Positions 1,972 through 2,241 of a DNA stretch of 10,105 nt are shown piece after piece; position 1 is the stretch's first letter; each line of letters starts with the position of its first letter. The DNA is from Chloroflexaceae bacterium (GTDB taxonomy: Bacteria; Chloroflexota; Chloroflexia; Chloroflexales; Chloroflexaceae). A program made the position numbers and the translations under genes. The DNA lies in the NCBI GenBank assembly GCA_012034075.1, contig JAAURD010000160.1, forward strand, positions 1-10,105, in the 5' to 3' direction. The notes beneath the pieces were generated by a model that was given only the letters and a program-made list of their open reading frames with translations, was not told the origin of the DNA and did no database searches.

Positions 1972-2025
1972 TCGCCCCGCTATACTGGTTGCAAGAAAAG
2001 CGCATACAACAATGGAGGTGTTGCA

Positions 2026-2241
2026 ATGTTTGGAAACAAAACGGACAAGGCGAAGCGCTTGGAGTAAACTACGGCGCTGCTGATGGAACAGCCATTATCG
2101 CCGGCGGAACTGGCGCGAAAGCTCGGTGTGGCGTGTTCCACGGTGTTACGCGATTTGCCGGTGTTGGAGGAGCAGGGGGTGCTGTTGCAAGAAGATGGAC
2201 GGGGCGTGCTGCACCTGTTCCGGCGAGTGCTGAAGGGGTAA
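2026..2241 (+). pseudogene. small winged-HTH protein gene interrupted by an in-frame TAA (2065..2067); N-terminal paralog of the downstream WYL regulator
   Basis: A strong Shine-Dalgarno GGAGGTG (2014..2020) sits 5 nt before ATG 2026. The frame gives MFGNKTDKAKRLE, then TAA, then continues in the same frame as [57 protein letters not shown], ending at TAA 2239..2241. It aligns residue-for-residue with the N-terminal wHTH of the WYL protein (MTLNKAIIKSEGLDQLKRYLLTGRKTRSELQDLLGIDRTTLWRWIRSLERNEYAIDTDEQGRLFI). The internal ATG 2083 has no Shine-Dalgarno of its own. Confidence 0.45.

Follow-up and report, generated by a model that had tools for sequence, protein, structure and literature searches.

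The locus considered here raises the question of why the strongest ribosome-binding site in a 10,105-bp stretch of DNA should lead into a reading frame that stops after 13 codons, when the same frame, read on past the stop, encodes a winged helix-turn-helix (wHTH) protein. The arrangement may reflect a broken gene, an error in the sequence, a functional but N-terminally truncated regulator, or a genuine leader peptide. The stretch analysed, hereafter the window, is a complete contig (10,105 bp) of an NCBI Chloroflexaceae MAG. The features that define the small gene are as follows, numbered from the first nucleotide of the window.

2026 to 2241, plus strand: small wHTH gene of the M[FY]GxK family, 71 codons plus stop, interrupted at codon 14
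2014 to 2020, plus strand: Shine-Dalgarno sequence GGAGGTG of the small wHTH gene
2065 to 2067, plus strand: premature TAA at codon 14, midway through helix 1, which spans residues 5-19 in the model
2083 to 2241, plus strand: residual 52-aa ORF from an internal ATG, without helix 1 and without a Shine-Dalgarno sequence
2134 to 2136, plus strand: codon 37, TGT, encoding Cys at the residue that opens the recognition helix, which is Arg in the family

The GGAGGTG sequence is separated by 5 nt (TTGCA) from the ATG at 2026-2028, and the small wHTH gene is the single case in the window in which GGAGG and an ATG stand at proper spacing before a real gene. The Shine-Dalgarno sequences of the neighbouring genes are weaker (GGAAGGA for the WYL gene, GGAG for cas3), and the initial annotation was thus right in calling this the best ribosome-binding site in the window. 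From the ATG at 2026 the frame encodes MFGNKTDKAKRLE (13 codons) and then reaches the TAA at 2065-2067, beyond which it stays open for 57 more codons, up to the TAA at 2239-2241. Two antisense ORFs on the minus strand (1980-2375 and 2069-2266) were set aside, since it is the plus-strand frame that is conserved in all homologues.

That the continued frame, with its ATG at 2083, encodes a wHTH is borne out by several types of comparison. With X in place of the stop, the small product scores above the Pfam gathering score for three wHTH families, i.e. HTH_5 (23.7 versus 22), HTH_IclR (23.6 versus 22) and HTH_DeoR (21.2 versus 21), and it also matches HTH_11 in Pfam with an E value of 5.8e-5. The AlphaFold model of the closest intact homologue (mean pLDDT 68) has helices at residues 5-19, 26-33 and 37-49, together with a two-strand wing. 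The small product thus combines a three-helix bundle and a β-hairpin wing with a curated HTH match, and the PDB matches of the small protein, both by sequence and by fold, are all wHTH regulators. No Pfam match to a WYL or WCX domain was found in the 71-aa product; both domains are present in the adjoining 351-aa protein.

Five intact homologues (P0001-P0005), recovered by a word-indexed search of 5.8 billion proteins, are 69-71 aa in length and 58-71% identical to the query over 92-99% of it; all start with MFGNK and have E, Q, E, E or R opposite the stop. Contig look-ups, together with genome and metagenome scans, gave approximately 14 further distinct loci, each with an uninterrupted gene of 67-77 codons. 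The intact small gene was seen in L001, L002, L007, L009, L012-L016, L018 and L020-L024, of which L021 is from the cultured Herpetosiphon llansteffanensis. The small proteins of all the recovered loci have the M[FY]GxK start in common, and in all the orthologues GGAGG or GAGG precedes the start codon at a distance of 5-9 nt. When 1.84 billion cluster representatives were searched with a profile, 73 matches were obtained at E ≤ 1e-10, most of them 66-77 aa long and aligned from residue 1; an M[FY]Gxx start is present in 63 of these representatives, and the M[FY]GxK family is at least 63 representatives in size at 50% identity. An uninterrupted ORF of 66-77 codons is characteristic of the family, and it is in this respect, by virtue of the TAA at codon 14, that the window copy departs from it.

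None of the orthologues recovered has a stop at the codon 14 position. The codon is GAA in L009, which is among the closest relatives, CAA in L012, L014, L016 and L020, and AAA, CAG, GAG, CGG or GTG elsewhere, such that in 8 of the 14 orthologues read (those with CAA, GAA or AAA) it is one base removed from TAA. The sense codons of the orthologues at this position imply that the TAA of the window is a single-base change. The remainder of the frame agrees with the family, encoding MFGNK, K8, R11, L12, T39, D43 and L44, and following the consensus at every position that is conserved at ≥ 70%, with R37C as the sole deviation. Arg37 is present in 46 of the 63 representatives and in 11/11 other sequences of alignment A3.

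No description of a small wHTH partner was found in the literature searched, which included the study of Makarova et al. 2014 (PMC4012209). The M[FY]GxK small-protein family appears to be undescribed, with the window copy appearing to be an ordinary, disabled member of it. M[FY]GxK is a small wHTH family, defined in the present analysis by its N-terminal motif, by conserved K8, R11 and L12 and by a recognition helix of the RSTV type, and it is located directly upstream of CRISPR-associated WYL regulators of the Chloroflexota. In the window the small gene is followed first by these two genes.

2350 to 3405, plus strand: wHTH-WYL-WCX regulator, 351 aa (Pfam WCX 2.8e-17, WYL 2e-5; identical to the NCBI MAG protein P0156)
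3408 to 5960, plus strand: Cas3g-like Cas3 of 850 aa, a helicase with an HD nuclease at the C terminus (NCBIfam cas3_core 163 bits against a cutoff of 102; best match Cas3g)

The WYL regulator of the window matches the PADLOC model of a WYL-Cas3c fusion (PDLC01766) over positions 2-318 (E 2.4e-97), and the Cas3 is full length, aligning end to end, with 3 deviations at the 178 columns that are invariant in six orthologues. In every related locus recovered the cassette opens with the small gene, directly after which comes a wHTH-WYL-WCX regulator of about 350 aa. In the type I loci Cas3 comes next or is fused to the regulator; in L013 the next genes are of type III. In three loci the WYL regulator and Cas3, with its HD and helicase parts, form a single polypeptide of 1071-1222 aa (L007 644-4312, L014 1385-4600, L016 1863-5537), and the small gene and a palindrome, discussed below, are still found upstream. 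The downstream effectors include Cas5c/Cas8c (type I-C) in L014, Cas8g2/Cas7g (type I-G) in L018, and a Cas8a-like large subunit, a DevR-type Cas7 and further cas genes in L002, L020, L021, L022 and L024; these differing effector genes suggest that the cassette is a portable regulatory head of Chloroflexota CRISPR-Cas loci. The record titles of the cassette loci refer to Chloroflexaceae, Chloroflexota, Anaerolineae and Herpetosiphon. On the other side of the small gene, and divergent from it, the window has a gene for a 524-aa SPFH/Band 7 protein (minus strand, 226-1800), which is outside the cassette in other loci. A conserved protein of 91-93 aa is encoded between cas3 and the Cas8a-like subunit in L001 (4611-4889), L002 (4557-4838) and L020 (5549-5824); it has no match in Pfam, NCBIfam or PADLOC, and the L001 and L002 proteins are 40% identical.

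The cas genes of the window consist of cas3 alone, with a convergent grpE-like gene beginning 115 nt after it. In L020, L021, L022 and L024, cas3 is followed, as far as the contigs reach, by cas8-like, cas7 (DevR), cas5-like, cas6, cas1, cas2 and cas4 genes. A tblastn search for remnants of cas8, cas7 and cas5 genes in the window found none, and the window has no CRISPR repeat array. The window therefore does not in itself hold a type I CRISPR-Cas locus with Cascade genes, adaptation genes and an array; the remaining cas genes of the organism may be on another contig. Between cas3 and the grpE-like gene, at the place where cas effector genes would be expected, lies a hairpin rich in G/C, CCCCTCTCCC-acaa-GGGGAGAGGGG, with a T-run after it (6009-6033); it may serve as a terminator in both directions or be an element of the REP type. 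The minus strand from 6076 to 9790 encodes a 330-aa GrpE homologue whose N terminus carries a long extension, a 115-aa protein consisting of a J domain only, and two TPR proteins (437 and 330 aa), a run that may be a specialised chaperone module; within it, an 18-nt tandem repeat (2.4 copies, 7486-7529) encodes the acidic DFDFDPDFDLDPD C terminus of the 437-aa TPR protein.

Conservation across the loci extends to the DNA upstream of the small gene, and to that between the small gene and the WYL gene, where three elements can be recognised in the window.

1953 to 1971, no strand assigned: candidate operator O1, a 19-bp perfect palindrome, TGTTGCA-gtagg-TGCAACA, predicted from cross-locus conservation
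1981 to 1986, plus strand: -10-like hexamer TATACT, exactly 9 nt after the palindrome
2282 to 2315, plus strand: second promoter-like element before the WYL gene, consisting of TGTTGCT (2282), 21 nt and TATGCT (2310)

A zero-mismatch copy of the palindrome, TGTTGCMNNNNNKGCAACA (TGTTGCM-N5-KGCAACA), is found a single time in each of 21 loci among the 25 fetched, 61-76 nt before the start of the small gene; it has one mismatch in L013 and L017, and the region is absent from the other two. The window conforms to the family in position, with the small gene directly before a wHTH-WYL-WCX gene and the palindrome 73 nt upstream of the ATG at 2026; in the window as a whole, 0.04 matches would be expected at ≤ 1 mismatch. 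When 15 loci are aligned on the palindrome, the hexamer that lies 9 nt past its right arm has A at position 2 in 15/15 and T at position 6 in 14/15. If the hexamer is a -10 element, the palindrome would cover approximately -40 to -22, with its proximal arm centred near -25. No properly spaced -35 element was found for the promoter of the small gene, and a canonical sigma-70 scan of 1800-2400 gave no plus-strand promoter, so the promoter calls made here are from cross-locus conservation only. Directly 3' of the -10-like hexamer is the element GGTTGCAA, which is present in the window (1987-1995) and in L022 (about 6629), and was not seen in the other loci.

The second promoter-like element, comprising a TGTTKNC half-site, an ATTTT tract and TAnnnT 21 nt after the half-site, is present between the small and WYL genes in 13 of 14 loci. 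The distance from TGTTGC to the -10-like hexamer is 21 nt in both promoters, whether counted from the left arm of the palindrome or from the half-site of the WYL gene, and this equal spacing suggests that TGTTGC may itself serve as a promoter element. No terminator-like site was found between the small and WYL genes. TGTTGCA is over-represented in the window, with 9 occurrences found versus 2.5 expected, a number reached in 0 of 200 shuffles. One of these occurrences (2019-2025) had been described as overlapping the start codon of the small gene; in fact it abuts the ATG, and it is absent at that place in the orthologues. The idea that the codons for MFGNK (ATG TTT GGC AAC AAA) are conserved for the sake of a GGCAACA half-site was rejected, because the variants GGA AAC, GGG AAC, GGC AAT and GGG AGC break the site and keep the peptide motif. 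A comparison of the operator variants (TGTTGCA versus TGTTGCC) with the recognition-helix residues of either protein gave no clean partition, the clades being few and the comparison confounded by phylogeny.

The relationship between the small protein and the WYL regulator that it precedes depends on the level at which it is viewed. The initial annotation described a position-by-position alignment of the small product with residues 1-65 of the WYL protein, a description that holds for profiles and fails for the individual pair of sequences. By pairwise BLASTP, the 71-aa product gave no alignment with the N terminus of the WYL protein of the window, the best match (E 0.47) being elsewhere in that protein. 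By contrast, the comparison with hhalign of a profile of 12 small proteins with one of 10 cognate WYL N-termini aligned residues 5-68 of the small family with 6-69 of the WYL proteins, in 64 gap-free columns, with a probability of 98.8% and a significant E value of 5.4e-17. The sole invariant residues of the WYL N-termini, R38 and T40, align with R37 and T39 of the small family, and it is the family residue opposite the invariant WYL R38, i.e. R37, that is Cys in the window. The best PADLOC match of the small protein is likewise to a WYL-Cas3c fusion model (positions 4-64, E 8.4e-8).

An HMM of the small family gives up to 55.7 bits on Chloroflexota WYL N-termini; NiaR, the PDB chain that it matches best, reaches 32.5 bits. 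For the nearest relatives of the WYL protein of the window the score is only 15-20 bits, and the WYL protein of the window itself is not matched. Domain-level paralogy between the small family and the wHTH of the WYL regulators is thus supported by profile comparison, and the weak or missing HMM matches in this clade indicate that here the two DNA-binding domains have drifted apart and may by now recognise different sites. A shared MxxNK start, which had been cited in favour of paralogy, is a coincidence in that the WYL orthologues start with MMLGR, MNR, MTYDR or MSRGM.

How, then, is the stop at codon 14 to be explained? We consider that it is probably a real and recent nonsense mutation in a conserved regulator gene. 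The gene carries a disabling mutation and its orthologues are intact and conserved, the pattern that distinguishes a pseudogene; with a TAA that is one base from the sense codons of the orthologues, and with a significant profile alignment to the WYL N-termini, the earlier suggestion of a recently pseudogenised HTH-only paralogue is the best of the three readings put forward in the initial annotation. The near-complete retention of family residues implies that the lesion is either very recent or an error in the MAG contig. Consistent with this, a relative-divergence test gave no signal of relaxed selection on the small gene and no excess divergence, the ratio of small-protein to WYL identity being 1.05 for pairs that include the window and 1.03 for other pairs. 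An error of sequencing, assembly or consensus, or a minority allele in the MAG consensus, would mean that the gene of the organism is intact and encodes a normal 71-aa regulator. Such an origin, which we regard as unlikely, would account for a defect that consists of a single substitution in a contig from a MAG, for the retention of all but one of the family-conserved residues without raised divergence, and for the state of the WYL and cas3 neighbours, which are intact and conserved like their orthologues, so that the locus is without general decay. It would not so readily account for R37C, a second unusual substitution within the same small gene and at the residue aligned to the invariant Arg of the WYL wHTH, nor for the absence of the effector and adaptation genes that follow cas3 in the four loci named above, and single-base substitutions are an uncommon type of error in short-read assemblies. 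R37C and the lack of effector genes shift the balance in favour of a real loss, and with the effector genes gone from the locus, relaxed selection on the regulator is plausible. Exact-protein look-ups with the Cas3, the 52-aa ORF and the WYL protein of the window (P0156) found no independent assembly with the TAA, the sole 100% protein match being the source MAG itself. Genome and metagenome scans with the small-protein alignment recovered neither a strain-level relative nor the source contig (the closest small protein is 71% identical), and a plasmid search with 1900-6000 of the window gave no match.

Two further readings accept the stop as real and assign a function to what remains. Re-initiation at the ATG at 2083, 15 nt past the stop, would give an N-terminally truncated protein of 52 aa; the in-frame ATG is near the stop, the Met at codon 20 is outside the five commonest residues of the family at that position and so could be a compensatory start, and helices 2 and 3 and the wing are all encoded downstream of 2083. 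Its product, however, would be without helix 1 (with K8, R11, L12 and the hydrophobic residues at 18/19) and without the MFGxK arm, no Shine-Dalgarno sequence precedes 2083, R37C takes away the conserved Arg of the recognition helix, and of approximately 90 small matches only P0053 (56 aa) and P0124 (67 aa) begin within helix 1 (profile positions 15-16), all of which makes a functional truncated protein very improbable. More improbable still is a regulatory purpose for the interruption itself, whether the 13-aa peptide were a true leader or upstream ORF or the TAA were subject to programmed read-through. The very strong ribosome-binding site before a very short ORF in a regulatory region is what such a leader would lead one to expect, and the initial annotation had raised it for this locus; comparison with the orthologous loci refutes a conserved leader, by the criterion that the initial annotation itself had set, because the stop is absent from every orthologue recovered, each of them has the complete protein, and it is the protein sequence that is conserved, with synonymous codon differences within MFGNK. 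TAA is, moreover, a working stop here, since it ends the small gene, the WYL gene and cas3, and a scan of the whole window with Rfam gave no family at its gathering score, which argues against a riboswitch or leader RNA explanation.

If the stop is, as we consider probable, a real nonsense mutation, a change of G or C to T at 2065 would have turned codon 14, which elsewhere encodes Glu, Gln, Lys or Arg, into TAA in the middle of helix 1, such that the strong start would now yield MFGNKTDKAKRLE alone. The intact small protein may be viewed as a sensor-less paralogue of the WYL DNA-binding domain, with a common R-x-T motif in the recognition helix; it may recognise the same TGTTGC half-sites as the WYL regulator, and could, while itself blind to any signal, provide feedback alongside the WYL sensor or compete with it at the palindrome. 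The alignment of the recognition helices is compatible with the idea of a shared operator or dominant-negative role. In this genome the control layer provided by the small protein would have been lost, and the WYL gene and cas3 would keep their own promoter; given the second promoter-like element before the WYL gene, their expression need not depend on the broken gene. The specific circuit to which these proposals lead, in which a sensor-less small wHTH and a ligand-sensing WYL protein use the same TGTTGC half-sites at two phase-locked promoters, one with the full palindrome and one with the half-site, and so gate Cas3, is put forward tentatively, and we regard it as possible rather than probable.

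Comparison with known systems is informative with respect to these proposals. SiwR, a mycobacterial WYL factor, binds between -35 and -10 at an imperfect palindrome of 19 bp and depends on the -26 region, and PafBC also acts at -26 (PMC10693628). The geometry predicted here is similar, in that, as judged from sequence, a 19-bp palindrome abuts the -10 region and has its proximal arm near -25/-26. Because the defence-linked WYL factors BrxR and CapW repress, sequence does not tell whether regulation here would be positive or negative. The neighbouring gene in the window encodes one of the wHTH-WYL-WCX factors, which include repressors (BrxR, CapW, sll7009) and activators (PafBC, SiwR, DriD). 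The small wHTH is colinear with the N-terminal domain of these factors and has in common with them the R-x-T start of the recognition helix; unlike them, it is without WYL and WCX, and hence without a ligand sensor or known dimerisation module. WYL-Cas3 fusion proteins in CRISPR-Cas systems of type I have been noted previously by Makarova et al. 2014 (PMC4012209); true fusions are present in the sister loci L007, L014 and L016, whereas the window has separate WYL and Cas3 genes.

Among solved structures, the best sequence matches of the small protein are to HTH_11, or biotin-repressor-type, proteins (NiaR, TM1602; 9ebr and 1j5y, E about 7e-7, residues 5-63), and its fold matches are generic wHTH proteins. 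NiaR and TM1602 carry a C-terminal ligand-binding domain; by contrast, the small family consists of the wHTH alone, with the M[FY]GxK N terminus. Small stand-alone HTH autoregulators located before nuclease or defence genes are familiar as the controller C-proteins of restriction-modification systems and the Aca proteins of anti-CRISPR operons. By analogy, the layout of the small family resembles theirs, with a protein of about 70 aa, a gene that stands first in its cassette, and a palindromic candidate operator over its own promoter. The C-proteins and Aca proteins have an HTH of the XRE/Cro type, however, unlike the HTH_11-type winged helix of the small family, and no sequence relationship was detected between them.

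In itself the interrupted gene, a small regulator gene with a single premature stop in a contig from a MAG, is an ordinary feature. It matters mainly for annotation, in that gene callers of the NCBI type either report nothing in this region or predict a 52-aa ORF that has no meaning. The by-product of its analysis is a compact and well-populated family of winged-helix proteins of about 70 aa, which, together with its predicted operator, is of modest interest. The small gene accompanies a CRISPR-associated WYL regulator in all of the approximately 14 distinct related loci that carry it, most of the identifiable ones being from Chloroflexota, and the exact operator sequence and promoter geometry are now defined and testable. 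To our knowledge, WYL control of CRISPR-Cas expression has been described for very few systems. If the proposed circuit is correct, it would span type I-C, type I-G, Cas8a-like type I and type III loci of the Chloroflexota, the M[FY]GxK proteins would represent a CRISPR-associated regulator not described so far, and the contig studied here would be a natural knock-out of the sensor-less partner; with Herpetosiphon llansteffanensis as a cultured carrier, such a circuit would be accessible to experiment.
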